From NCBI GenBank assembly GCA_963828195.1, contig CAWHDT010000005.1, positions 224,001 through 288,000 on the forward strand: a stretch of DNA of 64,000 nucleotides. The letters are read 5' to 3'. Numbering within the stretch: the stretch's first letter is position 1; each line of letters begins with the position of its first letter. This DNA comes from Candidatus Bathyarchaeota archaeon (GTDB lineage Archaea > Thermoproteota > Bathyarchaeia > Bathyarchaeales > Bathycorpusculaceae). Both the position numbers and the translations under genes were made by a program. The notes beneath the pieces were generated by a model. That model was given only the letters and a program-made list of their open reading frames with translations. It did no database searches and was not told where the DNA came from. Positions 36,453 to 55,170 of this stretch are shown here, piece after piece.

Positions 36453-36468
36453 CGAAACGCTTATATTT
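36453..36468 (+). promoter_or_regulatory. putative BRE/TATA promoter of the aro operon leader
   Basis: CGAAACGCTTATATTT about 40 nt upstream of the leader ATG. Confidence 0.6.
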
Positions 36469-36506
36469 TCTTGATAACGTCTCATTGAACAAGGGTTCGA
36501 AGCTAC

Positions 36507-36590
36507 ATGTCCAATTGCAAAAGCCACAAAGGAAACAGTTCCGCACAATCGCTCAGCTTCGACTACTATTTTTACGGTTATTTTTCTTAA
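36507..36590 (+). CDS. putative Phe/Tyr-rich leader peptide of the aromatic amino acid operon (27 aa)
   Basis: MSNCKSHKGNSSAQSLSFDYYFYGYFS*; 7 of the last 10 codons are Phe/Tyr, none in the first 17; ends 56 nt before the operon. Confidence 0.75.
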   Translation: MSNCKSHKGNSSAQSLSFDYYFYGYFS

Positions 36591-36628
36591 GCCCAGAACT
36601 GAAAAGTTTTTTAAGCAAGGTTCTGGGC
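36591..36628 (+). promoter_or_regulatory. hairpin directly after leader stop codon (attenuator-like)
   Basis: GCCCAGAAC (36591-99) pairs with GTTCTGGGC (36620-28); T6 tract in the loop. Confidence 0.65.
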
Positions 36629-36646
36629 AAGGCACGGGTGTAAGCG

Positions 36647-37894
36647 ATGGCGAAGAATGATTCTGGCAGAAGAATTGTTGTTAAATTCGGGGGGTCTAGC
36701 CTGGCGGATCATGAGCGGCTCTTGAAAGCGGCGCTTGCCGTGGTCAACGAAGCCAAGGCGGGCACACAGGTCGCTGTTGTAGTTTCTGCTATGGGTAAAA
36801 CAACCGATGTCCTTATGACGACGGCGAAAAACGCTTCCCACGGGAAACTGGAGAAAAAAGACTTGGACGATATCCTCTCTATGGGCGAGCGTACCAGCAT
36901 AAGAATTTTCGCTGCTGCATTGAAAAACAACGGTGCCGAATCCTGCTACTTCGACCCCATCGACAGCAACTGGCCGATAATTACTGATTCAGCATTCCAA
37001 AACGCCAACCCAATACTGAAGGACTGCGAAAAAAATATTCGCGAATGCATACTGCCAGTCATGGAGAAAAGCGTCATACCTGTGGTGGCGGGGTTCCTCG
37101 GCAAAACAAAGGACGGCAAAATCACCACTCTTGGAAGAGGCGGCAGCGACACAACAGCGTTTATCTTAGCTGAAGCCCTGAACGCTGACGAAATCGTCTT
37201 AGTCACCGACGCAGACGGCATAATGTCAGGCGACCCAAAAATCGTGTCGAACCCAGAGCGCCTAAAAGAAATCGACGTTAACACTATAGTGGGGTTAGCT
37301 GATTCAGGCGCCAAATTTATCCACAGCAAAGCCCTAAAGTACAAACCCAAAAACATCAACGTCCGAGTAATCAACCACGCGCACGGCAACTTAACTAAAG
37401 AAGGCACCGTAATCACGGGCGCATTAGCAACGGAACTGGACGCGGAAATAGCTCATCCTTTTCCAGTTGCTGAAATAACGGTGGTCGGAAACGGCATCTC
37501 CGCAAACCCCCAAATCATCCAGGAAATGGTGGAGAAAACCAAACAGCACTCGCAGCTTTTGGGCATGTCGATGAACACAAACTCAATCATACTTTATGCT
37601 TCTCAAGAAAAAACCTTGGACGCACTCTTCAACGACATCCACAATATCACAAAAAGCAACAGGGAAACCATAGCGATGGCGGTCAAAAAAGACTTGGTTT
37701 TCATAAAAACAAGCGGGGTCGGCTTAGAGGAAACCCATGGCATAATTGGGAAAATCAGCGAAGACCTCAGATTGAACGGCATAAACATTTCAGGCATACT
37801 GACCATAACGTCAAGTATTTTGCTTTTTGTAGATTGGAATGAGCGTGAAAAAGCGCTTGCGCTAATTAAAAACTCATTAAGGACTTCGAAATAA
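36647..37894 (+). CDS. lysC: aspartate kinase
   Basis: VVKFGGSS, VVVSAMG, LGRGGSDTTA, GDPK, ACT domains. Confidence 0.92.
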   Translation: MAKNDSGRRIVVKFGGSSLADHERLLKAALAVVNEAKAGTQVAVVVSAMGKTTDVLMTTAKNASHGKLEKKDLDDILSMGERTSIRIFAAALKNNGAESCYFDPIDSNWPIITDSAFQNANPILKDCEKNIRECILPVMEKSVIPVVAGFLGKTKDGKITTLGRGGSDTTAFILAEALNADEIVLVTDADGIMSGDPKIVSNPERLKEIDVNTIVGLADSGAKFIHSKALKYKPKNINVRVINHAHGNLTKEGTVITGALATELDAEIAHPFPVAEITVVGNGISANPQIIQEMVEKTKQHSQLLGMSMNTNSIILYASQEKTLDALFNDIHNITKSNRETIAMAVKKDLVFIKTSGVGLEETHGIIGKISEDLRLNGINISGILTITSSILLFVDWNEREKALALIKNSLRTSK

Positions 37895-37910
37895 GCAAAG
37901 GTGACGAAAC

Positions 37911-38702
37911 ATGAATCAAGGAAAAACAAGACGATTAAAAAGAATCATGCAGGAAGACAACCGCACCGTAGTCGTGCCCATGGATCACGGCGTAACAATA
38001 GGCCCAATTCGGGGAATCACTAACATGCAGCAAATAATCGATAAACTCCTAAAAGGCGGAGTTGACGCAGTGCTTGTCCACAAAGGCATCGCCAAACACG
38101 TTGACGCTGGAAACGCAGGGTTAATAGTGATGTTGTCAGGCATGTCAAACCTTAGCCCCAACGTAAACGGTAAAGTTCAAGTATGCAGCGTCAAAGAAGC
38201 CATTCGGCTTGGCGCAGACGCCGTTTCCGTCCACGTGAACGTCGGTTCACAAGATGAAGACAAAATGTTAAGCAACCTAGGCAGTGTAGCCGAAGAATGC
38301 GACTTATACGGCATGCCGCTGCTCGCGATGATGTACCCGCGGGGACCAAAAATACAGGACGAACATGCACCAGAAGTGGTAGCCCACGCAGCAAGAATCG
38401 GCGCTGAACTGGGAGCGGACATAATTAAAACAAACTTCACAGGCAAAATAGACAGCTTCAAAGAGGTTGTCGAAAGCTGCCCGGTTCCAGTCTTGATTGC
38501 CGGAGGACCAAAATGCAAATCTGCCCAAGAAATCCTCCAAACCACACATGACGCTCTGGAGGCGGGAGCCGCGGGACTCTCCATAGGAAGAAACGTGTTC
38601 CAAAACGAAAACCCAACCCTGATAGTAAAAGCGCTCTCAGCAATCGTTCACAGCGGCGCCAGCGTGGAGCAAGCGCTTAAAATTCTCGGTGAAAAACCTT
38701 GA
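37911..38702 (+). CDS. 2-amino-3,7-dideoxy-D-threo-hept-6-ulosonate synthase (class I aldolase, AroA')
   Basis: PMDHG, MMYPRG, ELGADIIKT, AGGPK, GRNVFQ; adjacent to DHQ synthase II. Confidence 0.88.
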   Translation: MNQGKTRRLKRIMQEDNRTVVVPMDHGVTIGPIRGITNMQQIIDKLLKGGVDAVLVHKGIAKHVDAGNAGLIVMLSGMSNLSPNVNGKVQVCSVKEAIRLGADAVSVHVNVGSQDEDKMLSNLGSVAEECDLYGMPLLAMMYPRGPKIQDEHAPEVVAHAARIGAELGADIIKTNFTGKIDSFKEVVESCPVPVLIAGGPKCKSAQEILQTTHDALEAGAAGLSIGRNVFQNENPTLIVKALSAIVHSGASVEQALKILGEKP

Positions 38703-39727
38703 AGGAACTATGGATCGAAATTGGCAAAAAACTAGCTGCCCCGCCATCAAAAATCATTGACGATTACTTTGATGTAGTTATTGATAGCGGCAAAGCTACA
38801 TTTTGGGCAATCGATAAAAACAAACAGGTTGACATTGTTTCTCCAAACAAAGGAGAGCGGCTGGAAAACGCCAATGTTAAAAACGAGATTCTGCGGATTT
38901 GTATCAGTGATAAAGAAACTGAAAACCAAATAGTTGAAGCGGCAGAGCTTGGAGCAAGCTACTTAATTATAAGCTGCGCTAACTGGCGTGTTATTCCTTT
39001 AGAAAACCTTATTGCCCGAATAAAGGGCAAAAGTAAACTCATTGCCGAAGTTACCACTGCTGAAGAAGCCAAGATAGCGCTGGAAACCCTCGAATTAGGA
39101 ACCGATGGAGTTTTACTGAAAACTTCAGACAGCGAGGAAATTCTCAAAGCAGTTGCAGTCGTTAAGCCTGAAGCTTTGAAGCTTGAAATGGCTGTGGCAA
39201 AAATAATTTCTACCAAGCCCATCAGCACGGGCGCTCGAGTTTGCGTAGACACGTGCGATTTGATGACTCAAGGTGAGGGGATGCTTGTGGGCAGCCAAAG
39301 TGCTGGTTTATTTTTGGTGGAGGCAGAGGTGCATGAGAACCCCTATGTTGCGTCTCGGCCGTTTAGGGTGAACGCGGGGTCCTGTTCCATGTATACACTG
39401 GGCAGTTTGCAGACCACTCGTTACCTGCAAGAATTCAAGGCAGGCGACGAAGTCATAGTTGTCAATCGCGAAGGCAAAACCCGCAAAACCAACGTGGGAC
39501 GCATAAAAATCGAGATCAGACCGCTCATCTTAGTAGAAGCGCAAGTCGAAGGCAAAACCATAAAAACTATCCTTCAAAACGCCGAAACCATTCGCCTAGT
39601 AACGCAAGAAGGCTCAAAGCCCGTAACTGAGCTTAAACCCAGCGACGAAGTTATCGTGCACTTAGCCGCCAAGGGAGGCCGGCACTTCGGCATATCAGTG
39701 CCTGAAGAAACGGTGATAGAAAAGTGA
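38699..39727 (+). CDS. 3-dehydroquinate synthase II (AroB')
   Basis: WRVIPLENLIA, RVCVDTC, RPFRVNAG, LQNAETI, RHFG. Confidence 0.93.
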   Translation: MKELWIEIGKKLAAPPSKIIDDYFDVVIDSGKATFWAIDKNKQVDIVSPNKGERLENANVKNEILRICISDKETENQIVEAAELGASYLIISCANWRVIPLENLIARIKGKSKLIAEVTTAEEAKIALETLELGTDGVLLKTSDSEEILKAVAVVKPEALKLEMAVAKIISTKPISTGARVCVDTCDLMTQGEGMLVGSQSAGLFLVEAEVHENPYVASRPFRVNAGSCSMYTLGSLQTTRYLQEFKAGDEVIVVNREGKTRKTNVGRIKIEIRPLILVEAQVEGKTIKTILQNAETIRLVTQEGSKPVTELKPSDEVIVHLAAKGGRHFGISVPEETVIEK

Positions 39728-40404
39728 CAACTAGAATCTGCGTTTCGATTCTCCCAAAAGACATCGAGGAAGCATTAAGTCTCATCGAGACAGCTGAAAA
39801 AGAAAAGGCAAACCTCGTAGAAGTAAGACTGGACCACCTTGGAGCAGCCAGAAACCTAAAGGATCTTGTTAAAAGCACAAAAATTCCTCTAATCGCAACA
39901 AACAAGCTCTTAATTGAAAACGGCTTTTTTGGTGGAACAGAAACAGCGCGGCAGCAAACGTTATTTTTGGCTGCTAAAAACGGTTTTGAATATGTAGATG
40001 TTGACTTAGGCGGCTTAAAACTTAAAGAAACAATCGGTGAACTCAAGCCTTTAGGCGCTAAACTAATCGTTTCCTACCACAACTTTAACGGCACATTAAA
40101 CATTTCTGAAATGGTAAAAATTCTGGAAGAAGAAATGGCTTGCGGCGCTAATGTCTGCAAAATCGTGACGACAGCAAATAAAATGGAAGATAACCTTGCA
40201 ATGCTGAATTTTGTTTCCGCCATGTCCAGCAAGACTAAGCTTGTCTGTTTCTGCATGGGCGAGCAAGGAAAAGTTTCCAGGCTTCTTTCGCCGTTGTTCG
40301 GTGCCTTCTTCACGTTTGCTTCTTTGAAGCAGGGCAGTGAAACCGCTGCAGGTCAAATGACTGTTCAGGAAATGAGGGCGACCTACGACCTCTTGGGGGC
40401 ATAA
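39724..40404 (+). CDS. aroD: type I 3-dehydroquinate dehydratase
   Basis: EVRLD, SYHNF, KIV, MGEQGKVSR, AAGQ. Confidence 0.92.
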   Translation: MTTRICVSILPKDIEEALSLIETAEKEKANLVEVRLDHLGAARNLKDLVKSTKIPLIATNKLLIENGFFGGTETARQQTLFLAAKNGFEYVDVDLGGLKLKETIGELKPLGAKLIVSYHNFNGTLNISEMVKILEEEMACGANVCKIVTTANKMEDNLAMLNFVSAMSSKTKLVCFCMGEQGKVSRLLSPLFGAFFTFASLKQGSETAAGQMTVQEMRATYDLLGA

Positions 40405-40407
40405 ATC

Positions 40408-41271
40408 ATGGTTATTTCAGGAAAAACCCAGGTTTGCGGAGTAATCGGTGACCCCATAGAGCACACTCTTAGCCCAATTATTCATAATGCGGCGTTTGAG
40501 GCTTTGAAAATAAACTATGTTTTTTTAGCCTTCAGAGTAAAATCCGCGGAGGTTGAAAACGCGGTAAAGGGCATGCGCGCATTAAGCATCCACGGCTTAA
40601 ACGTAACTATGCCGCATAAAAACGCCGTCATAAAATTCTTGGATGAAGTGGACCCCACTGGCAAAGCCATAGGTTCCGTCAACACTATCCTGAACAAAGA
40701 TGGGCGCCTTCTCGGGTTCAACACGGACGGCGTCGGAGCCCTAACTGCGCTGGAACAAAACGGCGTCGAGCTAAAAGGTAAAAAGGTGCTGTTGCTTGGA
40801 GCAGGCGGCGCCGCAAAAGCAATAGCGTACACGCTCTCGCAAGACGCAGATGAACTGGTAATTTTGAACCGCACACCTGAACCAGCCTCCGAATTAGCCG
40901 GGCTATTGAAACAAAAGTTCAACAAAAAAATCAGCGCAGACAAGCTCTCGCCAAACGCAGTAAAAGATAACCTCGGTAACTCCGAAGTGCTCATTAACGC
41001 CACTTCAATCGGGATGAAACCAAACGCCGATCAAACCCCAGTTGCACCCGAATGGCTCAGACCTGACTTGGCAGTGATGGACATAGTGTATAATCCAATT
41101 GAGACGAAGCTCGCTAAAGATGCTAAAGCGGCAGGAGCCAAAGTCGTGGGCGGAGTGGAAATGCTGATTTCTCAAGGCGCCGTTTCGTTCGAAATCTTCA
41201 CTGCTTGCAAGGCGCCAGTTGCGGTTATGAGGAAGGCAGCGCTTAATCACTTGCGGACGGTGCAGAAGTGA
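40408..41271 (+). CDS. aroE: shikimate dehydrogenase
   Basis: HTLSP, NVTMPHK, NTDG, GAGGAA, DIVYNP. Confidence 0.95.
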   Translation: MVISGKTQVCGVIGDPIEHTLSPIIHNAAFEALKINYVFLAFRVKSAEVENAVKGMRALSIHGLNVTMPHKNAVIKFLDEVDPTGKAIGSVNTILNKDGRLLGFNTDGVGALTALEQNGVELKGKKVLLLGAGGAAKAIAYTLSQDADELVILNRTPEPASELAGLLKQKFNKKISADKLSPNAVKDNLGNSEVLINATSIGMKPNADQTPVAPEWLRPDLAVMDIVYNPIETKLAKDAKAAGAKVVGGVEMLISQGAVSFEIFTACKAPVAVMRKAALNHLRTVQK

Positions 41272-42137
41272 CTGGGAAAGCGACGGCTATAGCTCATGGC
41301 GCGGCAACAATCGTGAATGCAATGGCGCTTGGCAAGGGCGCAGCATTCGGGGTTGACCTGTGGACTAAAGCCGAAGTAAAATTAACAGATGAACCCCATG
41401 TTATCAAGGCAGAAATAACCTCTGACCCCAAAGAAAACACCGCTTTAACCGAAAAAACCGTGATGCGGGTTCTGCGGCGGTTCAGCTTAGAGAACAGTTT
41501 TGGCGCCCAAGTAAAAACTTGGTCAAATATCCCTATCGCTAAAGGACTTAAAAGCAGCAGCACAGCCGCAAACGCAGTAGCCCTGGCAGCTACGGCAGCG
41601 TTGGACAAAACGCTTAGCGACTTAGAACTTGTCAATTTAGGCGTGGATGCTGCTTTTGACGCCAAAGTGACTGTAACAGGCGCTTTTGATGATGCATCTG
41701 CGTCATTCTTCGGCGGAGCAGTTATTACTGACAATTTGAATCGGGAAATAGTTAAGCAGTTGCCGTTGGCTGAAGACTTAATTGTTCTTTTCCATGTGCC
41801 GCCCCAGAAAGCGTACTCAGCCAACGCTGACGTGGCGAGGCTTCAAACTGTGAAACCGCTTGTTGAAGTCGCCTACAAGCAAGCGCTGGAAGGCAAGGTT
41901 TGGGAGGCGTTAACGCTTAACGGCTTAATTTATTCTTCAGCCTTCGGGTACAACCCTTCAATCGCGATTGATGCGTTGGCTGCCGGAGCGGCGGCGGCTG
42001 GATTATGCGGCAAAGGACCTGCGGTGACGGCGGTTACGCCCAGGGGCAAAGTTGATTCCGTGAAAACAGCACTGCAAAAATATGACGGCACAATAATACA
42101 GGCTAACATTAACCGTGAAAAAGCCAAGGTGCTCTAG
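41268..42137 (+). CDS. aroK: archaeal shikimate kinase (GHMP family)
   Basis: GAATIVNA, PIAKGLKSSS, TGAFDD, GKGPA. Confidence 0.92.
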   Translation: MTGKATAIAHGAATIVNAMALGKGAAFGVDLWTKAEVKLTDEPHVIKAEITSDPKENTALTEKTVMRVLRRFSLENSFGAQVKTWSNIPIAKGLKSSSTAANAVALAATAALDKTLSDLELVNLGVDAAFDAKVTVTGAFDDASASFFGGAVITDNLNREIVKQLPLAEDLIVLFHVPPQKAYSANADVARLQTVKPLVEVAYKQALEGKVWEALTLNGLIYSSAFGYNPSIAIDALAAGAAAAGLCGKGPAVTAVTPRGKVDSVKTALQKYDGTIIQANINREKAKVL

Positions 42138-42140
42138 CCA

Positions 42141-43445
42141 ATGACAAACATAATCATTAAGAAAACTGAAAAACTAAACGGCGAGGTTTGTGCTCCGCCA
42201 TCAAAGTCTTACACACAGAGAATGGCAATAGCCGCTGCACTGTCCGAGGGAGTTTCCAAAGTGTCAAATCCGCTTTTGTCAGAAGACACCCAAGCAACCC
42301 TGCGAGCCATCACTGCTTTAGGCGCCAACGTGGCGGCGGCTGAAGGCTGCTGGACTATTACGGGCGCAAACCCGCTTACAAACGCCAAAGAGCCTATTAA
42401 CTGCGGTGAATCAGGCGCCACATTGCGTTTCATGATACCTGTAGCGGCTTTACCGCCTGACCCATCAACTCTAATTTTTAAAGGTTCAATTGAACATAGA
42501 CCCATCGAACCATTAATCAAAAGTCTCGAGGAACTCGGGGCAAAAGCGCATCTGCGAAAACTTGGGGGCAAAGACGCCGTTGTAGTCGAGGGCGGCGGCA
42601 TCTTAGGAGGCGAAACCTCCATTCCGGGAGATGTCAGTTCCCAGTTTATTTCAGGATTAATGCTTGCCTGCCCAATGGCAAAAGTGGACACAGAAATCAC
42701 CCTAACGACTCCCCTTGAATCCGCGGATTACGTTAAAATGACGAGTGATGTTCTTTTTAAGCATGCGATTCAATTGGAAATTCACGACAACTTTAAACTC
42801 ATAAAGATCCCCGCTAACCAAACCTACAAGGCTGTTGACTGCAGAGTGCAAGGTGATTTTTCTTCAGCTGCATTCCTCCTCTCTGCCGCAGCAATAACAA
42901 GCTCCAAAGTTCAGGTAAGTAATCTTGAATACAAAAGTGTTCAAGGCGACAAGGCAATTCTGGGAATCCTAAAGCAAATGGGAATCGAAGGAAAAGTATG
43001 CCCCAGCAGCATCGAAATAAACGGAACCGGCAATTCGCTTGGACCCGTCAATGTTGACGCAAAAAATATTCCTGACTTAGTTCCAGCCTGCGCCGCGCTT
43101 GCATGCTACGCCGAAGGCACATCAAAAATCAGCGGTGCACAAAGGCTCAAACTTAAGGAGTCGGATAGGTTGAAGTCGCTTTATCTTGAGTTGAGAAAGA
43201 TGGGCGCAAAAATAAAGGCAGATTCAAGCAGCTTAACTATAGAAGGCCCCTGTGCCCTGCATGGCGCAGTAATTGACCCCCACAACGACCACCGCATAGC
43301 GATGGCCTGCGCGGTTGCAGCTTTAGGTGCGGAAGGCCAAACTACAATTCAACACGCTGAGTGTGTTCGAAAGTCTTATCCGCAGTTCTTCACTCATCTA
43401 AAACAGGTAGGAGCTGAAATTGTTGGCGGGAAATTCGATTGGTAA
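42141..43445 (+). CDS. aroA: EPSP synthase
   Basis: PPSKSYTQR, GESGATLRF, SSQFISG, KESDR, DHRIAM, KSYPQF. Confidence 0.96.
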   Translation: MTNIIIKKTEKLNGEVCAPPSKSYTQRMAIAAALSEGVSKVSNPLLSEDTQATLRAITALGANVAAAEGCWTITGANPLTNAKEPINCGESGATLRFMIPVAALPPDPSTLIFKGSIEHRPIEPLIKSLEELGAKAHLRKLGGKDAVVVEGGGILGGETSIPGDVSSQFISGLMLACPMAKVDTEITLTTPLESADYVKMTSDVLFKHAIQLEIHDNFKLIKIPANQTYKAVDCRVQGDFSSAAFLLSAAAITSSKVQVSNLEYKSVQGDKAILGILKQMGIEGKVCPSSIEINGTGNSLGPVNVDAKNIPDLVPACAALACYAEGTSKISGAQRLKLKESDRLKSLYLELRKMGAKIKADSSSLTIEGPCALHGAVIDPHNDHRIAMACAVAALGAEGQTTIQHAECVRKSYPQFFTHLKQVGAEIVGGKFDW

Positions 43446-44529
43446 AGAATTCACAGTAACCACTTTCGGCGAAAGCCACGGCAGCGTCGTCGGCGTAGTC
43501 GTCGATGGCTGCCCAGCAGGGTTGCGCTTCTCCGAAGCAGATATTCAAGCAGAACTGGATAGACGCATTCCACCGGAACCCAAAATTGTTTCGGGAAGAA
43601 TCGAAAAAGACTCAGCCAAAATATTGTCAGGAGTTTTTAACGGTTTCACAACTGGCGCCCCAATAGCTTTAATCGTTGAAAACAAGGATGTTGACTCAAG
43701 CAATTACGAGGCAATCAAGGATTTACCACGGCCCGGGCATGCAGACTACCCAGCAAGCATAAAGTATGGAGGCTTTAACGATTACCGAGGCGGCGGACGC
43801 TTCTCAGGCAGGCTTACAGTCGCACTTATCATGGCCGGCGCGGTAGCCAAAAAACTGCTGAGCAGATTCGACGTTGACGTTTTAGCTTACACCCGAGCAG
43901 TTGGCAAAATTAAAAGTGATAAAGCGTTTACTGCTGAAGAAATCCGCAACAACAGGTACAAAGCGGTTACTCGATGTCCAGACTTTGCCTGTGCAGAAAG
44001 AATGGAAGAAGCCATCGTTGCCGCGAGAAAAGAGGGGGATAGTCTCGGAGGAATAGTTGAATGCATTGCCCTAAATGTCCCCGTAGGCGTTGGTGAGCCA
44101 CTGTTTGATTCGCTTGATGCGGATTTGGCAAAAGCCCTGTTTGATGTTCCCGCCGTAAAAGGTGTCGAGTTCGGCTTGGGCTTTAGAGCTTCAGAGTTAA
44201 AGGGCTCAGAAAACAACGACGCCTACTTTATGCAAAGCGGCAAAGTTGCAACGTCAACGGATAATGCAGGGGGCATCTTGGGAGGAATATCCACTGGAAT
44301 GCCAATCATGATGCAAGTTGCCATTAAACCAACTCCTTCAATCAACAAAGAACAAAAAACTGTTAATCTGTCTAAGATGGAAAATGCACGCCTCAGCATT
44401 AAGGGCAGGCATGACCCATGTGTGGTCCCGAAGGCTGTGCCCGCCGTGGAATCCGCGGTCGCCATAACCTTAGCTGACCATATGATTCGCGCTGGCTTTA
44501 TACCGAAAGTTTTGGAGAGACAGAAATAA
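43420..44529 (+). CDS. aroC: chorismate synthase
   Basis: FGESHG, PRPGHAD, GGGRFSGR, KPTPSI, GRHDPC. Confidence 0.96.
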   Translation: MLAGNSIGKEFTVTTFGESHGSVVGVVVDGCPAGLRFSEADIQAELDRRIPPEPKIVSGRIEKDSAKILSGVFNGFTTGAPIALIVENKDVDSSNYEAIKDLPRPGHADYPASIKYGGFNDYRGGGRFSGRLTVALIMAGAVAKKLLSRFDVDVLAYTRAVGKIKSDKAFTAEEIRNNRYKAVTRCPDFACAERMEEAIVAARKEGDSLGGIVECIALNVPVGVGEPLFDSLDADLAKALFDVPAVKGVEFGLGFRASELKGSENNDAYFMQSGKVATSTDNAGGILGGISTGMPIMMQVAIKPTPSINKEQKTVNLSKMENARLSIKGRHDPCVVPKAVPAVESAVAITLADHMIRAGFIPKVLERQK

Positions 44530-44801
44530 TGGATGAAATCCAACAGCTTCGAAAAAAAGTAGACCAAGTTGACATGCAAATACTAAATGCCCTAAACGAA
44601 AGAGCCAAAATATGCAGAACTATCGGGTTAGCCAAGAAAAAAGTGGGGATGGAAATAAGGGACACTTCCAGAGAAAACGAGGTGTATAAGCGAGTTAAGG
44701 AAAAAGCGGTTGAATTTCATCTGGACCCCCTGCAAGTTGAAGCGGTTTACCGCGAAATAGTTAATATGTGCAGTGCTGTTCAAGAGGGGAAAGAACTCTA
44801 A
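44529..44801 (+). CDS. chorismate mutase (AroQ type)
   Basis: LRKKVDQVD, ER, K, RE pattern; operon context. Confidence 0.88.
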   Translation: MDEIQQLRKKVDQVDMQILNALNERAKICRTIGLAKKKVGMEIRDTSRENEVYKRVKEKAVEFHLDPLQVEAVYREIVNMCSAVQEGKEL

Positions 44802-44815
44802 CGGAGAGTTGATCT

Positions 44816-45895
44816 GTGCTTTACGAAATAAATGAGAAAGCCATAAGGCTCGAAAATCAAGGCAAAAAAATAATCCGCTTAAACCTAGGAGACCCAGACT
44901 TAGCTACGCCAAACGAGATAATTGAAGCTGCGTACGCGGCGATGAAGGCGGGCAAAACAAAGTATTCTTCCTCTTACGGCGAAACCAACCTCAGAGAAAA
45001 GCTCGCCGAATTCCACGGAGTTAAAGCTGAAAATGTTGTTATCACTCCTGGTTCAAAATGGGGCATATTCGCTACAATGTATCTTATGTTGAAGGCTGGG
45101 GGAAACGTTATAATTCCCATGCCTTACTGGACAGCTTATGATTTAATCGCTAAAAGCCTTGGTGCTCAAACCAAACTTTTAAAGACCGAGATGGAAAATG
45201 GCTGGAAAGTAGATTTAGACAAGCTTGAAGCCATGATTGACAGCAACACCCGCATGATTATACTTAACAATCCGAACAATCCGACAAGCAAAGTCATGGA
45301 TACTGAAACACTTGACGGCATAGTTGAGATAGCCAACAGGAAAGGCGTTACAATATTGTCCGATGAGGTTTATGGCACAATCAGTTTCGTTAAATCAAAA
45401 AGCATCTTAGAGTACAACGGCAACCACAAACACATCTTAACCACTGGCTTCTCCAAAACCTTCACCATGACAGGCTGGCGAATAGGCTACATCGTGGCAA
45501 ACAAAGAGTTAGTCAACAACATAACCAAGCTAAACCAAATCACAATCAACAACGTCCCAGTTTTTATTCAGGAAGCAGCGCTAAAAGGGCTAGAAATGCA
45601 GAAACAACTTGCCACAAAAATAAAGAAGGAATATGAAGAACGCGCAAAAATGGCAAGCAAAACCTTAGCCAAAGCAGGATTCTTATTCACTGAGCCTGAA
45701 GCGCCGTTCTACGTGTTTCCCATGCATAAGGGTTTAAACTCGGAAAAATTCACTTTAGAACTGCTTGACAAGGGCGTAGCCGTTGCTCCAGGCACAGCCT
45801 TCGGCGATTATAGTGAGCATTTTCGCATTTCCTTAACCGCGCCGAGAGATCAAATTAAGGTCGGGTTGGAAAAAATCAGCGAGGCTCTTGAATGA
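44816..45895 (+). CDS. class I/II PLP aminotransferase (aromatic/aspartate)
   Basis: NNPNNPT, SDEVY, FSKTFTMTGWRIGY. Confidence 0.92.
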   Translation: MLYEINEKAIRLENQGKKIIRLNLGDPDLATPNEIIEAAYAAMKAGKTKYSSSYGETNLREKLAEFHGVKAENVVITPGSKWGIFATMYLMLKAGGNVIIPMPYWTAYDLIAKSLGAQTKLLKTEMENGWKVDLDKLEAMIDSNTRMIILNNPNNPTSKVMDTETLDGIVEIANRKGVTILSDEVYGTISFVKSKSILEYNGNHKHILTTGFSKTFTMTGWRIGYIVANKELVNNITKLNQITINNVPVFIQEAALKGLEMQKQLATKIKKEYEERAKMASKTLAKAGFLFTEPEAPFYVFPMHKGLNSEKFTLELLDKGVAVAPGTAFGDYSEHFRISLTAPRDQIKVGLEKISEALE

Positions 45896-46764
45896 AAACC
45901 GCGATTCTAGGCGCCGGAAAGATGGGTGTCTGGTTCGCGAAATTCTGCAAAGAAAGCGGCGAGACAGTTGTTCTCGCTGACCGAAAAGCAGAGAAGTTGC
46001 CGAAACTGGCTAAGGAATTGGGAGTTGAAACCGCAGTCAGCTTCACTGAAGCCGTCAAAGATGCAGAGCTTATTATAGTATGCGTTTCAATAAGCAGCTT
46101 TGAAGAAGTCATCAAAACTATAGCCCCCAGCATCAGAAACGAACAAGTGGTAATGGATATCTGTTCAATCAAAGAGTATCCTGTCAGGGTAATGCATGAG
46201 AACATCAAACATGGCTTAGTTTTGGGCACTCACCCGCTTTTTGGTCCAGGAAGCAGCGGCGTCAAAGGAAAAGCATACATTTTGACTCCCACCAACCCTG
46301 AAGAAGAAAAATACGCTTTCAAATTCAAGGGGTGGCTGGAAAAGGTGGAAGCACATGTTTTTATTATGTCTCCTAAAAAGCATGATGAGTTGATTTCAGT
46401 TGTTTTGGGGTTGCCGCATTTCTTGGGGCTTGCCGCCTGCGAGGCGCTTGTGGAACGCAAAGATTTTGCAGAGACAAAAGAGGTTGCCGGAACCACTTAT
46501 CGGATGCTGTTCACTTTGGCAGAAGTTACAGCGCTGGAAACCCCCGACCTATATGCTAACCTTCAAACGAAACTGTCTGATTTTTCAATCGAAGACTTGT
46601 TTATGGCTAAAGCTAAAGAGTGGCTTGAACTGGTTAAAAGCGGAGATGCAGACGCAATCATGAAACGCATGGAGCAGCTAAAGGCAAAGTTGACTGAAGC
46701 TGACCCAGACTTCACCAAATCATACGAAGCAATGTACCGCATGCTTGAAGCTGCAGAAAAATAG
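45892..46764 (+). CDS. tyrA: prephenate dehydrogenase
   Basis: GAGKMG, DICSIK, HPLFGP, HD, LPH. Confidence 0.92.
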   Translation: MKTAILGAGKMGVWFAKFCKESGETVVLADRKAEKLPKLAKELGVETAVSFTEAVKDAELIIVCVSISSFEEVIKTIAPSIRNEQVVMDICSIKEYPVRVMHENIKHGLVLGTHPLFGPGSSGVKGKAYILTPTNPEEEKYAFKFKGWLEKVEAHVFIMSPKKHDELISVVLGLPHFLGLAACEALVERKDFAETKEVAGTTYRMLFTLAEVTALETPDLYANLQTKLSDFSIEDLFMAKAKEWLELVKSGDADAIMKRMEQLKAKLTEADPDFTKSYEAMYRMLEAAEK

Positions 46765-46772
46765 GGAAATTT

Positions 46773-47405
46773 TTGACTAAATCATTAATTGTCAACTGCT
46801 CTTTGAAAGGCAACAAAAATGAAGCCCTACGTGAAGCTGTTGGCAAATTTAGCGACTATACCGTCATTCAATTTCAAGATATCAATAAAGGTTACCGCAT
46901 TGGACAGAGTATTGACGCTATCATCTTGAGTGGGTCTGTAGCGAGGATAGTCGATCCATCCGACCAGAGCTTATTCAGAGAAACGGCTGATTTGATAAAA
47001 ACCTGCAGCTTGCCCATCTTCGGCACTTGTTTTGGTCATCAACTGCTCTGTTGGGCATTTGGCGCCAAAGTCGGGTCGCTCGCTCAACCCGTTTTTGACC
47101 GATTTGAAAGGGTTCGGGTTGTGGATAATGAAGATGATGATGGAGTATTTTCAGGCTTTCCAAAGGGGCAAACAGTACCCTTGGCTGAGTCACACTACGA
47201 TTACGTCTTAAAAGAAAGCCTCGTTGAGGCCGGTTTCGTTTTGCTGGCGGATTCAGCTTCATGCGAAGTCGAAGCCGTCAAGCACAAAACCAAACCTTTC
47301 TATGGAGTCCAATTCCACCCCGAACGCATAAACCAAAAAGGCCAATGCCATCCTGAAGGGCACAAAATCATAGAGAACTTTTACCGAAACGTCGTAGAGC
47401 GGTAG
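46773..47405 (+). CDS. type 1 glutamine amidotransferase
   Basis: GTCFGHQ, SHYD, GVQFHPE. Confidence 0.88.
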   Translation: MTKSLIVNCSLKGNKNEALREAVGKFSDYTVIQFQDINKGYRIGQSIDAIILSGSVARIVDPSDQSLFRETADLIKTCSLPIFGTCFGHQLLCWAFGAKVGSLAQPVFDRFERVRVVDNEDDDGVFSGFPKGQTVPLAESHYDYVLKESLVEAGFVLLADSASCEVEAVKHKTKPFYGVQFHPERINQKGQCHPEGHKIIENFYRNVVER

Positions 47406-47494
47406 CCATTGGTATTGGCACATTTTTGTTACATATGTAACAAATTCGTTCCAATGTTAACCCCAAAGCTTCATCAAAACAAGAAAACAAAATT

Positions 47495-48307
47495 TTAGAT
47501 GACTCTTGGGTAGGAGCCCAGGATTTTGACGAATGTAGCGTATTTCTCCAGCGCCTGCAGGGCTTCAGCACAGCGTTTTTCGGTCCTGTGGCCCTCAAAA
47601 TCCAAGTAGAAATTGTATTGCCACGCGGTGGTTTTTGTGGGTCTGGATTCAATTTTTGTCAAGTTAATGTTTCTTGATGCAAACTCGCCGAGCGCATGAT
47701 AGAGGACTCCCGGCTGGTGTTTAGTTGAGAATATGATTGAGGTTTTATCGTCGCCGGTGGGCGCAGCATCTTCGAAGCTAAGCACCAGGAACCGCGTGTA
47801 GTTCGTTAGGTTGTCGGAGATGTCGCGGGCGAGGATTTTCATGCCGTAGAGGTCAGCTGCTTTTTCGCCGGCGATGGCGGCGGCGTCTGTGAGGTTTTGT
47901 TCTTTGATTATTTTGACCGCTCCTGCTGTGTCGTAGGCGGGGATGATTTCCCATTTGTGCTTTTCAAGATATTTGCGGCACTGAGCTAATGCTTGGGGAT
48001 GCGAGTAAACGGTTTTGATGTCTTCAAATTTGGCTGCTGGATTGCCGATGAGGACATGGGCAAGTTTTACGGCGACTTCCCCGCAGACTTTCAGGTCGTA
48101 GGTGAGGAATAGGTCGTAGTTTTGGTTGACGCTGCCTTCAATAGAGTTCTCAATCGGAACCACACCATGCGGTACAGCGCCTGTTTTTACTGATTCAAAG
48201 ACTTCTTGAAAATCTCTGCAGGGAACGGGCTCTGCTTTGCTGCCGAAAAACTTGTAGACAGCCATTTCACTGTAAGCGCCGCTTTCGCCCTGATAAGCTA
48301 TCTTCAC
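47495..48307 (-). CDS. pheA: prephenate dehydratase
   Basis: QGESGAYSE, PIENSIEG, SHPQALAQC, NYTRF, IESRP, LGSYP. Confidence 0.95.
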   Translation of the reverse strand: MKIAYQGESGAYSEMAVYKFFGSKAEPVPCRDFQEVFESVKTGAVPHGVVPIENSIEGSVNQNYDLFLTYDLKVCGEVAVKLAHVLIGNPAAKFEDIKTVYSHPQALAQCRKYLEKHKWEIIPAYDTAGAVKIIKEQNLTDAAAIAGEKAADLYGMKILARDISDNLTNYTRFLVLSFEDAAPTGDDKTSIIFSTKHQPGVLYHALGEFASRNINLTKIESRPTKTTAWQYNFYLDFEGHRTEKRCAEALQALEKYATFVKILGSYPRVI

Positions 48308-49824: not shown

Positions 49825-49828
49825 TTTT

Positions 49829-50866: not shown

Positions 50867-51366
50867 TTTTTATTCATCTTCTTCCTTAGGTTTTCGATTA
50901 ATCCACCATCTGCCAATATTTCAATTATGAATGAGGGTAGCTTTTCTACTTGAAAGCTTTTGCCTCTTGAAATATTTTCTATCTTGCCAGCTTCAACATC
51001 TACAGATAATTCGTCGCCGGTTTCAACGGCGGCAGATATGCCTTCGCATTCAATCACGGGTAAACCTATGTTAATCGCGTTTCGGAAGAAAATTCGGGCG
51101 AAAGATTCTGCTATCACACATTTTACGCCCGCGTACTTTAGAGCCAGAGGCGCTTGCTCCCGGCTTGAGCCGCACCCGAAGTTTTTGCCGCCTACCAAGA
51201 TTACGCCTTTCTCTGCTTTCTTTGGAAATGTGCAGTCTAAACTTTCCAGTGCATGTTGCGCCAATTCAGTTGGGTCAACTAAGGTCAGGTATTTTCCAGG
51301 CAAAATAACGTCTGTGTCAATGTTGTTTCCGAATTTTATCGCCGGGGCTTTGAATTTCATATTCAT
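50863..51366 (-). CDS. leuD: 3-isopropylmalate dehydratase small subunit
   Basis: NIDTDVI, NFGCGSSREQA, SFARIFFRN. Confidence 0.93.
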   Translation of the reverse strand: MNMKFKAPAIKFGNNIDTDVILPGKYLTLVDPTELAQHALESLDCTFPKKAEKGVILVGGKNFGCGSSREQAPLALKYAGVKCVIAESFARIFFRNAINIGLPVIECEGISAAVETGDELSVDVEAGKIENISRGKSFQVEKLPSFIIEILADGGLIENLRKKMNKK

Positions 51367-52631
51367 GTTTTTGCCTCCATTTTTCTGGGGTCAGTGATTT
51401 TGCCAGTGACTGCTGAAGCCGCCACCGTTGCTGGAGAAGCCAAGTACACGCTGGCTTTGGTGCTGCCCATTCTTCCGATGAAGTTCCTGTTTGAAGTGCT
51501 TACGCAAACCTCGTTTGCCGCCAGTAAGCCTATGTGCCCGCCTAAGCAGGGACCGCATGCTGAACCGCAAACTATTGCGCCTGCATCAGTGAAGATTTCC
51601 ATTAAGCCCTCATTTAACGCTTGCTTGTAAACTTCCTGAGATGCGGGAATCACAAGTGCCCTAACGCCGTCTTTCACACGTTTGCCCTTTAGGACTTGAG
51701 CCGCTAAACGCAGGTCTTCGATTCTGCCGTTAGTGCATGAACCGATGAACGCCTGCTCGATTGATATGTTGCCTGCTTCTGAAACGGGTTTAACGTTATC
51801 AACAGATGATGGGCACGCTAGTTGGGGCTCCATCTTTGAAACATCAAATTCCTCTGTCAGCTCGTAAACGGCGTCTTTGTCGCTTCTTAACGATTCAAAG
51901 TTTGGCATCGCCTTGACTCTGCCTTCTAAGAATTTGCGGGTTGTTTCATCTGGCTCGATGATGCCGTTTTTGGCGCCCATTTCCACCGCCATGTTGCACA
52001 GCGTCATTCTTCCAGCTATGCTCATGCTCTTTATTGTTGGACCCGTGAATTCTGTGCTTTTGTATGTTGCTCCGTCAACGCCCATTCGCCCGATTATGGA
52101 CAGAATTAGGTCTTTTGGCGTAACGTACTTTTGGAATTCTCCCTTCACGTTTATTTTAATTGCTTCAGGCACTTTTAACCAGATTTTTCCTGTAGCTAAG
52201 ACTGCGGCTGCTTCAGTTGAGCCTATTCCCGTTGCGAAAGCTCCGAAGGCTCCGTATGTGCAAGTGTGGGAATCTGCGCCGACAATTACTGCGCCTGGAA
52301 CAACATGCCCTTTTTCGGGCATAACTTGATGGCAGATTCCGCCTCTGCCTATGTCGTAAATGAGGAGTTTTTGGTCTTTGGCGAATTGGCGCATGGTCTT
52401 GTGCAGTTCTGCCGCGTTAATGGATTCAGCGGGTACTTGATGGTCCAGTATAACCACTGCTTTTTGGTTATTCCAAACTTTTTGTACGCCTATTTTATTG
52501 AAGGCTTCAACAGCTAAAGGCCCCGTTAAATCGTGCACCATTATCATGTTGACGTTTGCATCCACGATTTCGCCTGGGTGCACCTCTTGTTTTCCTGAGG
52601 CTTTAGCCAAGATTTTTTCTGTTATGTTCAT
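51363..52631 (-). CDS. leuC: 3-isopropylmalate dehydratase large subunit
   Basis: DSHTCT, GSCTNGR, CGPCLG, NRNF. Confidence 0.94.
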   Translation of the reverse strand: MNITEKILAKASGKQEVHPGEIVDANVNMIMVHDLTGPLAVEAFNKIGVQKVWNNQKAVVILDHQVPAESINAAELHKTMRQFAKDQKLLIYDIGRGGICHQVMPEKGHVVPGAVIVGADSHTCTYGAFGAFATGIGSTEAAAVLATGKIWLKVPEAIKINVKGEFQKYVTPKDLILSIIGRMGVDGATYKSTEFTGPTIKSMSIAGRMTLCNMAVEMGAKNGIIEPDETTRKFLEGRVKAMPNFESLRSDKDAVYELTEEFDVSKMEPQLACPSSVDNVKPVSEAGNISIEQAFIGSCTNGRIEDLRLAAQVLKGKRVKDGVRALVIPASQEVYKQALNEGLMEIFTDAGAIVCGSACGPCLGGHIGLLAANEVCVSTSNRNFIGRMGSTKASVYLASPATVAASAVTGKITDPRKMEAKT

Positions 52632-52700
52632 GTTTACTCTCTTCTGTTACAATTAACTAATATTTTCGATTTTTTTGAATAAACGTTGTGATTTTTGGAG

Positions 52701-52724
52701 AACGGAAAGTTAAGGTTTTCCGTT
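52701..52724. promoter_or_regulatory. perfect inverted repeat between ilvN and leuC
   Basis: AACGGAAA-N8-TTTCCGTT. Confidence 0.45.
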
Positions 52725-52736
52725 GTAGGGGACGAT

Positions 52737-53249
52737 TTATTCGTCTATTCTTACTGTTTTTGCTCCCCTTGCCAATGCTGTTATGCCTGTTCTTGCAAGT
52801 TCAATGACGCCTGTAGTGTGCATTAGGTTTAGGAACGCGTCAAGTTTGTCGGGTGTTCCAGTGATTTCAACTGTTAAGCTGTCGGTTGCGACGTCGATGA
52901 TTCGTCCTCTGAAGACTTCTACGCAGTTTATTATGTCGGAGCGGTCTTTGGGGGTCGGCACGTTAACTTTTATCAAAGCTAGTTCCCGCATCACAAAGTG
53001 ACCCGGTTCTAGCTCCTCTACTTTCAAGACGTCAATGAGTTTTGCTAGTTGCTTGACAACTTGTTCAAGTGTTTTTTCGTCAGCGTTTACTGTGATTGTC
53101 ATGCGTGAGGTTTCGATGTTTTCGCTGGGGCCGACTGTTATGCTTTCGATGTTGAAGTTTCTGCGTCTGAACAAGTTGGCTACGCCATGAAGAACACCTG
53201 GCTTGTTTTCCACGAGCACAGATATTACTTTGGTTTGTTCGGTCTCCAT
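52737..53249 (-). CDS. ilvN: acetolactate synthase small (regulatory) subunit
   Basis: VENKPGVL, FNIESI, QLAKLIDV, RELALIKV, ELARTG. Confidence 0.95.
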   Translation of the reverse strand: METEQTKVISVLVENKPGVLHGVANLFRRRNFNIESITVGPSENIETSRMTITVNADEKTLEQVVKQLAKLIDVLKVEELEPGHFVMRELALIKVNVPTPKDRSDIINCVEVFRGRIIDVATDSLTVEITGTPDKLDAFLNLMHTTGVIELARTGITALARGAKTVRIDE

Positions 53250-54961
53250 TAGTAGTCACCTCTCTGTTGTGGTAAACCGCAGCCTGGGGGCACAAATGGA
53301 ACAACATCATGTTCTGAGCCAATAGGCACATCGATTACCGTTGTAACTTCACTGCTTAGCGCTGTCTTAACTGCTTTTTCGAACTCTTCAAGCGAGTTTA
53401 CTCGTAGACCTTGTGCGCCATATGCTTCTGCAAGCTTTACGAAGTCAGGAGTTTTTCCCAAGTTAACTGCCATGTAACGGCGTTTATAGAGCATTCTCTG
53501 CCACTGCGCCACCATTCCCAGCACCGAATTGTTTAGCACGATAACTATGACAGGAATCTTTTCAGCTACTGAACAGGCAAGTTCTTGCTCAGTCATTAAG
53601 AAACTGCCGTCGCCAGCTATGTCTACGACGGGTCTATCTGGGCAAGCAACTTTTGCTCCTATAGCTGCTGGGAAGCCAAAGCCCATTGTTCCAAGTCCAC
53701 CGGAGCTGATGAAGGTTCGCGGTTTTAACGCTTGGAAGTATAGGGCTGACCACATTTGGTTTTGCCCGACTTCAGTGGTGACAATGGTGTCTGCTGGCAG
53801 CAGTTTTCTCAGCTCTATCAGTAAGGCTTTTGGCACCAATTCTTTGGGTCTTTCCTTTAGCAATGGGCTCAGCTGCTCTTTAGCTTCCTTAACACGCTTT
53901 GACCACGCGCTAACTTTCATCCTGGGTAGCTTCTTTACAACGGCAGCATGCAACAGCTTTAACGAAACTTTTGCATCTCCGACGATTGGAACGTCAACTT
54001 CAATGTTCTTGCCGATTTCTGCCGCGTCAATGTCTATGTGAATTTTTTTGGCGTTAGGAGCAAAAGTGTCCAAGTTTGCTGTTGCACGGTCAGAAAATCT
54101 TGTTCCAATAGCTAACAGCACGTCAGCTTCACCAATCAGCCTGTTTGCAGCTGGGTTTCCATGCATTCCAATGCAGCCAACTGACAGCGGGTGGCATTCG
54201 GGAAAAGCACCTTTGCCCATGAAAGTTGTTGCAACTGGCGACATCAACAAATCCGACATCTGCATTAATTCGTCGGACGCATTAGAAGAAATGACTCCGC
54301 CGCCAGCCAGTATCATTGGTTCAACCGCCTCAGCCAGTAAATTGGCTGCTTCGCTGATTTTATCTAAATCTGGATTAATCTTGGGGTTGTAGCCTCGTGC
54401 TTCAATTTTCTCTATGATTCCTGTCGCTACGTCAGCGATGTCAGATTGGATGTTTTTTGGTATGTCAATTAGGACTGGCCCGGGTCTGCCTGAAGACGCT
54501 ATGTAGAATGCGGCGTTAACCATTGGTTGAATTTCAGCGATGGTGCGCGGCTGATAATTATGCTTGGTGATCGGCGTCGTGATGCCAATGATGTCTGCCT
54601 CTTGAAAGGCATCTTTGCCAATCATATAGGATGAGTTTACGCTTGTGGATGGAACCTGACCTGTTATAGCTATCATCGGCGAGGAATCCATGTACGCGTT
54701 CGCTATACCCGTTACTAAGTTTGTAGCGCCCGGTCCAGATGTTGCTAAGCAGACTCCTACTCGTCCGCTAGCTCGCGCGTAGCCTTCTGCTGCGTGGGCT
54801 GCCCCCTGCTCGTGTCTAGCGAGTACATGTCTAATTTTCTCGTTGCCGCATAAAGCGTCGTAGACCGGCAGTATTGCTCCGCCCAAGATTCCGAATATAA
54901 CATCTACGTTTTGTTGCTCAAGGGATTCTACAAGTGCCTTTGCACCAGACATTTTGGTCAT
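53249..54961 (-). CDS. ilvB: acetolactate synthase large subunit
   Basis: RHEQGAAH, SGPGATN, DAFQE, GDGSF...NN ThDP motif, MVAQWQ. Confidence 0.96.
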   Translation of the reverse strand: MTKMSGAKALVESLEQQNVDVIFGILGGAILPVYDALCGNEKIRHVLARHEQGAAHAAEGYARASGRVGVCLATSGPGATNLVTGIANAYMDSSPMIAITGQVPSTSVNSSYMIGKDAFQEADIIGITTPITKHNYQPRTIAEIQPMVNAAFYIASSGRPGPVLIDIPKNIQSDIADVATGIIEKIEARGYNPKINPDLDKISEAANLLAEAVEPMILAGGGVISSNASDELMQMSDLLMSPVATTFMGKGAFPECHPLSVGCIGMHGNPAANRLIGEADVLLAIGTRFSDRATANLDTFAPNAKKIHIDIDAAEIGKNIEVDVPIVGDAKVSLKLLHAAVVKKLPRMKVSAWSKRVKEAKEQLSPLLKERPKELVPKALLIELRKLLPADTIVTTEVGQNQMWSALYFQALKPRTFISSGGLGTMGFGFPAAIGAKVACPDRPVVDIAGDGSFLMTEQELACSVAEKIPVIVIVLNNSVLGMVAQWQRMLYKRRYMAVNLGKTPDFVKLAEAYGAQGLRVNSLEEFEKAVKTALSSEVTTVIDVPIGSEHDVVPFVPPGCGLPQQRGDY

Positions 54962-55057
54962 TTCATTGCCTCTCCTTTTTGAAATTTATACTCTCGTCTA
55001 CAGAAGGATTGATTTGCAAATTTTTCAACGGATGCTTCAGAGGGTTCCCTGGACAGT

Positions 55058-55108
55058 TCAAAGAATAAGTACCCGACGATTCCAGCTATTGAGGTGACGA
55101 TCCCTCAT
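55058..55108 (-). CDS. putative branched-chain amino acid leader peptide of the ilv-leu operon (16 aa)
   Basis: GAGGA SD 6 nt before ATG; MRDRHLNSWNRRVLIL*; last four codons GTA CTT ATT CTT. Confidence 0.65.
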   Translation of the reverse strand: MRDRHLNSWNRRVLIL

Positions 55109-55155
55109 CTTAATTCCTCTTGAAATCCACGTTCCCTAAAAATAGATAATTGTAC

Positions 55156-55170
55156 AAATAAAAGGCTTAC
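55156..55170 (-). promoter_or_regulatory. putative BRE/TATA promoter of the ilv-leu leader
   Basis: minus strand GTAAGCCTTTTATTT about 50 nt upstream of the leader ATG. Confidence 0.55.

Follow-up and report, generated by a model that had tools for sequence, protein, structure and literature searches.

The DNA analysed here, a 64,000-nt window of the genome of a Candidatus Bathyarchaeota archaeon (contig C5:224001-288000 of a 2.83 Mb assembly in 9 contigs), carries two convergent biosynthetic operons, the aro operon and the ilv-leu operon, each preceded by a short leader open reading frame (ORF). Both leaders are conserved in relatives far beyond chance, and both are probably genuine translated upstream ORFs through which the ribosome would signal how well the operon's own amino acids are supplied, by two different devices. 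From the sequences, their conservation, the architecture of the reading frames and the predicted helices we infer ribosome stalling, frameshifting and a regulatory outcome. The combined account, in which a classical Phe/Tyr leader would control aro and a hungry-codon frameshift switch similar to that of release factor 2 (RF2) would control ilv, with trp and his operons as further members, stands in our judgement at about an even chance. The original prediction for this block had described one design for both operons, with a cluster of cognate codons at the stop of each leader. The promoter elements, the two ORFs and the spacers of 56 and 96 nt were found as described, and each leader relates to its own pathway. 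The single design was not upheld, because the cluster of cognate codons next to the stop is present only in the aro leader, while the conserved part of the ilv leader is an N-terminal cassette.

The aro leader (36507-36590, forward strand; MSNCKSHKGNSSAQSLSFDYYFYGYFS) begins with the ATG at 36507 and consists of 27 codons followed by a stop. Its final 10 residues include four Tyr and three Phe, and the tract TTC GAC TAC TAT TTT TAC GGT TAT TTT (36558-36584) contains the putative sensing codons. Upstream, the sequence CCGAAACGCTTATATTTTC (36452-36470) reads as a B recognition element (BRE)/TATA-like promoter and is nearly invariant in an alignment of 60 sequences. Downstream, a 56-nt spacer leads to the ATG of the first aro gene (36647), which is preceded by the Shine-Dalgarno (SD)-like motif GGGTG (motif and ATG, 36636-36649). 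Tails of this kind are rare, given that at least seven F/Y/W in the last 10 residues were found in 3 of the 5,624 short upstream ORFs of the genome, and at least three F plus at least three Y in two of them, the aro leader being included in both counts. For the comparison with relatives, 27 loci from a genome search and 57 from named genomes were collected, of which 78 were usable and represented 67 distinct regions upstream of the orthologous first gene. All 67 contained an ORF with at least six F/Y/W in its last 12 residues, with lengths between 24 and 55 codons when the longest reading was taken. The N-terminus of these ORFs varies freely and the tail retains the pattern S-F-[DEG]-Y-x-F-Y-Y..[FY][FY]x, with synonymous TAT/TAC switches at the Tyr codons. 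At three loci from other families of the order, the nucleotides differ while the tails are alike (MFYSFSYFFYN, PFFGSFGYFGYRG, and PFFGRFGYFGY). Named records with close relatives of the first aro gene were all Bathyarchaeia or Bathyarchaeota metagenome-assembled genomes, including Ca. Bathycorpusculum. Other aspartate-kinase paralogues in the genome, with approximately 39% identity to the first aro gene, had no leader, and three such hits were set aside. Additionally, an invariant GGTTCGAAGC is located at 36494-36503 (forward strand), ahead of the leader ATG; we take it to resemble a tRNA T-arm/T-loop sequence, and it also forms the 5′ strand of the helix P1.

The RNAalifold analysis of the 60-sequence alignment reported two helices only. 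P1 is formed by UCGAAGC (36497-36503), situated 3-5 nt upstream of the leader ATG, and GCUUCGA (36556-36562), situated within the invariant Ser-Phe-Asp codons. Four of its seven pairs are invariant and three show one-sided, wobble-compatible changes, with 99.5% of the cells paired. P2 is a 9-bp hairpin (36591-36628) that begins at or directly after the stop codon, with the arms GCCCAGAAC (36591-36599) and GTTCTGGGC (36620-36628); RNAalifold pairs GCCCAGAAC with GUUCUGGGC, and compensatory changes occur at two of the nine pairs. Taken together, 99.4% of the P1 and P2 cells pair, compared to 21.7-46.0% when the partners are slid. P2 was recovered in all 20 single folds of diverse aro leaders (z-scores +0.05 to -4.13), and in 19 of these minimum-energy folds it was enclosed by a helix in which leader codons, often those for Phe or Tyr, pair with the SD and/or the AUG of the first gene. 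By analogy, aro is probably an ermC-like translational attenuator. A ribosome stalled on hungry Phe/Tyr codons would hold the enclosing helix open, so that the first gene is translated, whereas a ribosome that reaches the stop would leave and allow the helix to reclose over the SD and AUG of the first gene, after which P1 would shut the leader's own start. Two observations count against this mechanism: none of the seven pairs of P1 shows compensatory changes, and the enclosing helix appeared only in single minimum-energy folds and not in the RNAalifold result. A contribution of transcription polarity to aro control is possible. A frameshift reading of the aro leader was tried and rejected, since 60 of 66 leaders have a +1 or +2 frame that stays open as far as the first gene, compared to an expectation of 0.76 after shuffling, which is no more than chance.

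The original prediction had proposed a different outcome of the same ribosomal event, namely that release of the ribosome at C-terminal sensing codons bares the RNA and ends transcription, through aCPSF1/FttA or an oligo-U tract, while a stalled ribosome prevents it. The aro leader offers this model several points of support, including cognate codons that adjoin the stop, a U-rich Phe/Tyr tract that a stalled ribosome could therefore mask, and a T-run of 4-8, which most leaders have within the P2 loop, 15-20 nt past the stop (in the window, the loop contains an A-run, and T6 at 36607-36612). No transcription factor is encoded in the block, as had been stated, and this absence also fits the model. 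On the other hand, the T-run is missing in some leaders (e.g., L024 and L090), a scan for bacterial-type hairpin-plus-U terminators returned 0 sites, and no terminator/antiterminator pair with a U-tract was present in the RNAalifold results, which for aro consisted of P1 and P2 and for ilv of weak helices. When the ilv and trp leaders described below are also considered, with their variable C-terminal codons in the case of ilv, a +1 frame that terminates at the ilvB start in every one of the 29 leaders, and trpE placed in the +1 frame, neither frame arrangement being explained by termination on ribosome release, we regard this model as unlikely.

The ilv leader (55108-55058, reverse strand; MRDRHLNSWNRRVLIL) begins with the ATG at 55108 and comprises 16 codons and a stop (55060-55058), with 96 nt between this stop and the ilvB ATG (54961). 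It is preceded by the TATA-like TTTTATTT of the ilv-leu operon (55163-55156), of which TTTTTAT is kept in the alignment, and by the SD AGAGG (55120-55116), 7-8 nt upstream of its ATG. The four final I/L/V residues are a weak feature taken alone, since 18 of the 5,624 upstream ORFs share it. Moreover, the last three codons vary among relatives (LIL, LVL, QLL, QLF, QIS, HFY, QIL, LFC, LFL, FIL, PRN), and the VLIL tail is not conserved. Cognate codons adjoining the stop are thus a property of the aro leader, where seven of the last 10 encode Phe or Tyr, but not of the ilv leader, in which only single Leu and Val codons are conserved. In contrast to its tail, the first 13 codons of the ilv leader are nearly invariant at the nucleotide level. 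The 16-codon ORF was present in 23/23 loci of the genus, with the stop in the identical alignment column, and GAGG or GGAGG was situated 7-9 nt upstream of the frame-0 start in 29/29 leaders.

The conserved part of the ilv leader consists of RUG, an SD-like AGGGAU, 3 nt, a P-site codon, and then a Leu CUC or Val GUA codon. According to the alignment, our genome has two such cassettes. The first (55105-55091) is composed of the SD-like AGGGAT, CGT, the P codon CAC, and the A codon CTC (Leu), and the second (55084-55070) of the SD-like TGGAAT (TGGGAT in most relatives), CGT, the P codon CGG, and the A codon GTA (Val), with CGGGTAC shared by the genus and four other families. A cassette was found in 29 of 30 loci, corresponding to 23/23 in the genus and 6/7 in other families, which share the core RUGAGGGAU (L056 being the locus without it); among the other-family loci, the blocks GGGAU-NNN-CGG-GUA and GGRAU-CGU-YWC-CUY are interchangeable in order. 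The 3′ end of the 16S rRNA is GGAUCACCUCCU, and three genes use GAGGGAT as a genuine SD 4 nt ahead of their starts. The spacer contains further conserved blocks, CCAGGnnAnCCTCTRAA and AGACGAGAGTATA (54983-54996 and 55041-55055, reverse strand), of which the former can pair with the SD of the leader (AGAGG:CCUCU, 5 bp).

The frame architecture downstream of these cassettes provides the central argument for a switch of frame. In the window, the +1 frame of the ilv leader (55104-54958, reverse strand) opens right past a UGA that overlaps the leader ATG, and its closing TGA (54960-54958) overlaps the ilvB ATG (54961-54959). The same layout was observed in 29/29 leaders, in which the +1 frame opens at nt 4, directly past the start-overlapping UGA, stays open from codon 6 and stops at -5 to +20 of the ilvB start; frames 0 and +2 encounter stops 91-138 nt upstream of ilvB. 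Ahead of the frame-0 stop, 28 of the 29 leaders contain no ATG, GTG, or TTG in the +1 frame. When the spacers were dinucleotide-shuffled, the probability of an open frame was 0.05-0.53 per leader, and the product over 18 leaders with spacers less than 70% identical was 4e-16, a value that overstates their independence yet is far from chance. Given the UGA closure, the lack of a start of its own and an SD placed for frame 0, ribosomes would begin in frame 0, and the long frame would be reachable only by a shift. We therefore envisage a switch in which scarce charged Leu or Val tRNA would cause the ribosome to shift +1 at the CUC or GUA cassette, to read approximately 45 more codons and to stop on the UGA overlapping the ilvB AUG, thereby opening the leader RNA and coupling into ilvB. 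With a good supply, the ribosome would stop after 16 codons, about 96 nt short of ilvB.

Related cassettes precede two further biosynthetic operons of the same genome. The trpEGDCBA operon (contig C8) begins ATG GGG AAT CGC CTT TGG C, so that a UGG cassette lies ahead of trpE, which is in the +1 frame. The reading frame of the trpE gene (C8:192681-194097; 81-1497 of locus L250) contains no ATG, GTG, or TTG ahead of the conserved core, and the gene overlaps a 16-codon ORF encoding MGNRLWHKHNNPNKTI, whose ATG is the sole one preceded by an SD. The +1 product of this genome matches positions 1-448 of 449 of the TrpE-arch profile from residue 25 on. NUU-UGG was present at codons 5-6 in 22 of 24 loci found by homology, the other two being fused in frame (L193) or interrupted and not assessable (L196). 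A pattern search of 401 genomes of the class matched 73 genomes, compared to approximately 20 hits for a reversed control, and included 33 of the 40 genus genomes and 12 of the 18 genomes of family f7; trp loci of families f17 and f31 checked by eye also had TrpE in the +1 frame. In the 44 distinct cassettes, the ORF in frame 0 spans 7-34 codons and that in the +1 frame 460-654 codons. The fifth codon is CUU in 23, GUU in 12, AUU in 6, and UUU in 3, which gives NUU_U in 44/44 under a pattern that required TTTGG. The +1 frame is closed by a UGA at the start codon in 26 of the 44, and no canonical start precedes the conserved core in 24. Two loci of family f31 (L244 and L245, in genomes G098 and G142) bear the trp-like cassettes MGNCFWRSKASK and MRNWFWRSNASI, each ending at a stop, with +1 frames of just 17 and 13 codons that do not encode trpE. 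Hits to the trp pattern at second loci were rejected, as they lay inside repeat-protein or LAGLIDADG-like ORFs.

The hisGDCBHAF operon (contig C7) is preceded by ATG ATG AGG GAT TGC GTT CAT, the beginning of a frame-0 ORF of 15-24 codons that remains open through variable sequence in 25/25 genus loci, always ends in TAA and tolerates indels in multiples of three. The leader was also present in 3 of 5 other-family loci, with a GTG start. His is codon 6 in 28/28 leaders, a second NUU-CAU is found in the +1 frame in 28/28 and is followed by a stop within 4 codons, and the +2 frame, again in 28/28, remains open until a position between -10 and +10 of the hisG start; the shuffle product over nine representatives was 3e-8. 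This layout fits two +1 shifts in series. The hisG leader of our genome (C7:163139-163307; locus L138) contains the direct repeat GATTGCGTTCAT, with a spacing of 19 nt that places the second His codon in the +1 frame, and its long frame continues to the hisG start. Common to the ilv, his, and trp leaders is an SD-like RGGRAU, followed by NNN and the P codon. The candidate slip sites are NUU_U in trp and NUU_C in his, while in ilv CGG_G is acceptable and CAC_C and UUC_C are poor.

Considering the three operons together, we propose that Bathyarchaeia may regulate trp, his, and ilv-leu by programmed +1 frameshifting at a starved sense codon, using an RF2-like cassette that has a codon for the end product in place of the stop. 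trpE would be made only after the CUU-UGG-C shift, his would require two serial shifts, and for ilv-leu either the Leu or the Val cassette would suffice. We put this proposal forward tentatively, at somewhat less than an even chance, and several observations weigh against it. At ilv, the P-site codon of cassette 1 (CAC/UUC) re-pairs poorly in the +1 frame and only CGG-G of cassette 2 holds two of three pairs, and past the shift the +1 frame itself has Ile, Val, and Leu codons. The single ilv leader fold is no more stable than its shuffles (z = +1.24). At trp, an AUG or GUG occurs in the +1 frame at offset 10 in 12 of the 44 cassettes, and gene predictions for 87 of the 120 best database TrpE homologues place an in-frame start, always of the AUGGGG type, upstream of the cassette. 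At his, a GUG is located in the +2 frame 10 nt upstream in 25/25 genus leaders, and an SD-like sequence precedes it in 23, so that in the genus the long frame could start directly.

The his GUG and the predicted TrpE starts are at the same time arguments for a reading in which the upstream ORFs are translated with no regulated frameshift. The long frames would then be ordinary leader ORFs or the true TrpE N-terminus, entered through canonical starts of their own, through AUC, AUU, or AUA, or by a constitutive shift, and regulation would take place elsewhere, for instance by a protein that binds the repeated GGGAUCGUC or GAUUGCGUUCAU; operon-specific direct repeats are indeed found in the leaders. 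Among the rest of the 120 best TrpE homologues, 17 have their start in the stretch that separates cassette and core, 3 begin at the cassette itself, 12 are cut short within the core, and 1 is fused in frame 0. The TrpE N-terminus thus differs between public gene calls for relatives, and one annotation (P0011), which starts at AUC, agrees with this reading. However, direct initiation would not account for the ilv +1 frame, with its UGA closure in every leader and a canonical start in only one of the 29, nor for the trp cassettes that are closed by UGA (26/44) or lack a canonical start (24/44), and it is excluded in the other-family his leaders, where 3/3 are closed by UGA and have no start. The conserved SD is spaced for the frame-0 start and not for the shifted frame, and the presence of a cognate codon 6 at three operons is left unexplained. 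We thus consider translation with no regulated shift a real but minor possibility.

Further from the proposed frameshift switch is the view that the conserved blocks are not read by ribosomes at all, being DNA operators or structured regulatory RNA, either riboswitch-like or protein-binding, with the ORFs as by-products. The ilv and his leaders are conserved at the nucleotide level with few synonymous changes, to the point of being too conserved for compensatory changes, and the ilv leaders can form a small hairpin, GRGGRA-UCGU-YYCCUC; the P1 strands of aro are palindrome-like (TTCGAA). All these features speak for this view. Nevertheless, the ORFs retain their length and the position of their stop across variable stretches, as seen in the 16 codons of the ilv leader across the genus and in the his leaders of 15-24 codons, with their indels in threes and their TAA. 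Conservation of the aro tail is at the amino-acid level, as its codons show synonymous changes and its nucleotides differ in other families. The z-score given above for the single ilv fold tells against a stable RNA element as well, and a search of Rfam 15 gave no match in the leaders at the gathering threshold or even at E up to 1. Altogether, we find a function as an operator or structured RNA highly unlikely.

Regarding the suggestion that this lineage senses amino acids by the ribosome at its biosynthetic operons in general, the evidence goes in two directions, since his and trp carry related leaders but an unbiased scan yielded no further biosynthetic operon. That scan, a genome-wide search for tails enriched in a single amino acid, returned mostly poly-T or poly-A artefacts, and Pfam annotation of the genes downstream of the 20 top candidates revealed none that was biosynthetic. 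Upstream of ilvC and ilvD, which had been named as places to look, nothing obvious was found. In scans for a start codon with an SD-like motif, in which 12 downstream genes were annotated, only ilv, his, and trp stood out. Cassette candidates at C8:86642, C5:147420, C1:19314, and C1:36703 were rejected because they lay inside genes or before unrelated genes, and an ORF upstream of proC (MRRSSIYSKKMQ) was rejected for having no Pro codon at the expected place. This ORF and a similar one, MRRSIIYIKNPL (C9:150841 and C9:96024), both start with ATGAGGAGG; one is located 114 nt upstream of proC and the other ahead of an M50 peptidase/CBS gene, and they may belong to a repeated element.

The block between and including the two leaders contains 19 ORFs, all of which were assigned to enzyme families by NCBIfam, with no match to a transcription factor among them. 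The aro operon (36647-47405, forward strand) encodes an aspartate-kinase-like protein, ADH synthase, DHQ synthase II, aroD, aroE, an archaeal shikimate kinase, aroA, aroC, a chorismate mutase, an aminotransferase, tyrA (prephenate dehydrogenase), and a glutamine amidotransferase. The product of the first gene (36647-37894, forward strand; assigned by NCBIfam as aspartate-kinase-like) may be the source of aspartate semialdehyde for the archaeal ADH-synthase route. The ilv-leu operon (54961-47495, reverse strand) is composed of ilvB-ilvN-leuC-leuD-leuB-leuA (cimA-type)-pheA according to the same annotation. Its final gene, pheA (prephenate dehydratase; 47495-48307, reverse strand), overlaps the leuA-type gene by 4 nt, and this position wires Phe synthesis to the branched-chain operon and not to the aro operon facing it.

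Should these readings be correct, the leaders would represent the first ribosome-mediated amino-acid sensing described in Archaea, the first natural case in which frameshifting at hungry codons acts as sensor for a biosynthetic operon, and a new class of regulatory recoding. They would also explain the disagreement of gene callers on the TrpE N-terminus in these genomes and give annotators a rule for split-frame biosynthetic genes, while the cassettes could provide a compact amino-acid sensor for synthetic biology.

Control of amino-acid operons by leader peptides is a textbook bacterial mechanism, and to our knowledge no archaeal counterpart has been described. Literature searches on archaeal leader-peptide attenuation, on biosynthetic operons regulated by frameshifting and on frameshifting in Bathyarchaeia returned no archaeal case and no account of this system in the library searched. 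Like the bacterial attenuators trpL, pheL, hisL, ilvL/ivbL, and leuL, the leaders reported here are short ORFs on the same strand before a biosynthetic operon, with codons of the operon's own pathway and the ribosome as the putative sensor. The aro leader in particular is closely pheL-like, with Phe or Tyr at seven of its last 10 codons. In contrast to the bacterial systems, the host is an archaeon, no terminator/antiterminator pair with a U-tract was found in the alignments, and cognate codons number only one or two in the ilv, his, and trp leaders, where they occupy a fixed position downstream of an SD-like motif. The conservation of the aro leader indicates that a major lineage of uncultured archaea probably makes use of sensing by the ribosome.

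The closest parallel to the ilv, trp, and his cassettes is the +1 site of RF2 (prfB), AGGGGG-UAU-CUU-UGA-C, a sequence in agreement with a published review (PMC5009743). The review covers the CUU_U shift site of RF2 with the C after its UGA and the internal SD, the Ty1 site CUU_AGG_C with its hungry codon, and the ermC leader, in which drug-induced frameshifting lets translation into the spacer unfold the mRNA. In the same review and in a second paper (PMC3082878), frameshifting at E. coli pheL is judged incidental; termination-reinitiation coupling is the subject of another (PMC6728339). Our cassettes share with RF2 a short ORF in frame 0, within it an SD-like sequence that lies 3 nt ahead of the P-site codon and, at trp, a putative CUU_U slip site (CUU in 23/44) with a C past the A-site codon. 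By analogy, the functional trpE product would likewise come from the +1 frame, with a slow A-site codon reporting the level of the pathway product. The A-site codon is a sense codon (UGG, CAU/CAC, CUC/CUU, or GUA) instead of UGA, so the cassette would work like an RF2 site and not be a member of that class. The shifted frame of ilv and his encodes no functional protein and would just carry the ribosome to the main start, and the domain is Archaea. As in the hungry-codon frameshifting of Gallant and of Ty1, the +1 shift would be driven by a slow sense codon in the A site adjacent to a slippery codon in the P site. Frameshifting inside a leader ORF would also be shared with pheL, although the downstream architecture conserved in all 29 ilv leaders argues for its use, unlike the incidental pheL shift. 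With the translational attenuation of ermC and cat, the leaders would have in common a ribosomal event that opens RNA structure for downstream initiation, by stalling in aro and by shifted reading in ilv and his; the signal would differ, being the supply of aminoacyl-tRNA and not an antibiotic, and the operons are biosynthetic. The ilv, trp, and his cassettes thus suggest that the slow-codon logic of RF2 has been reused with sense codons, in a kind of control that seems not yet to have been described for amino-acid biosynthesis operons.

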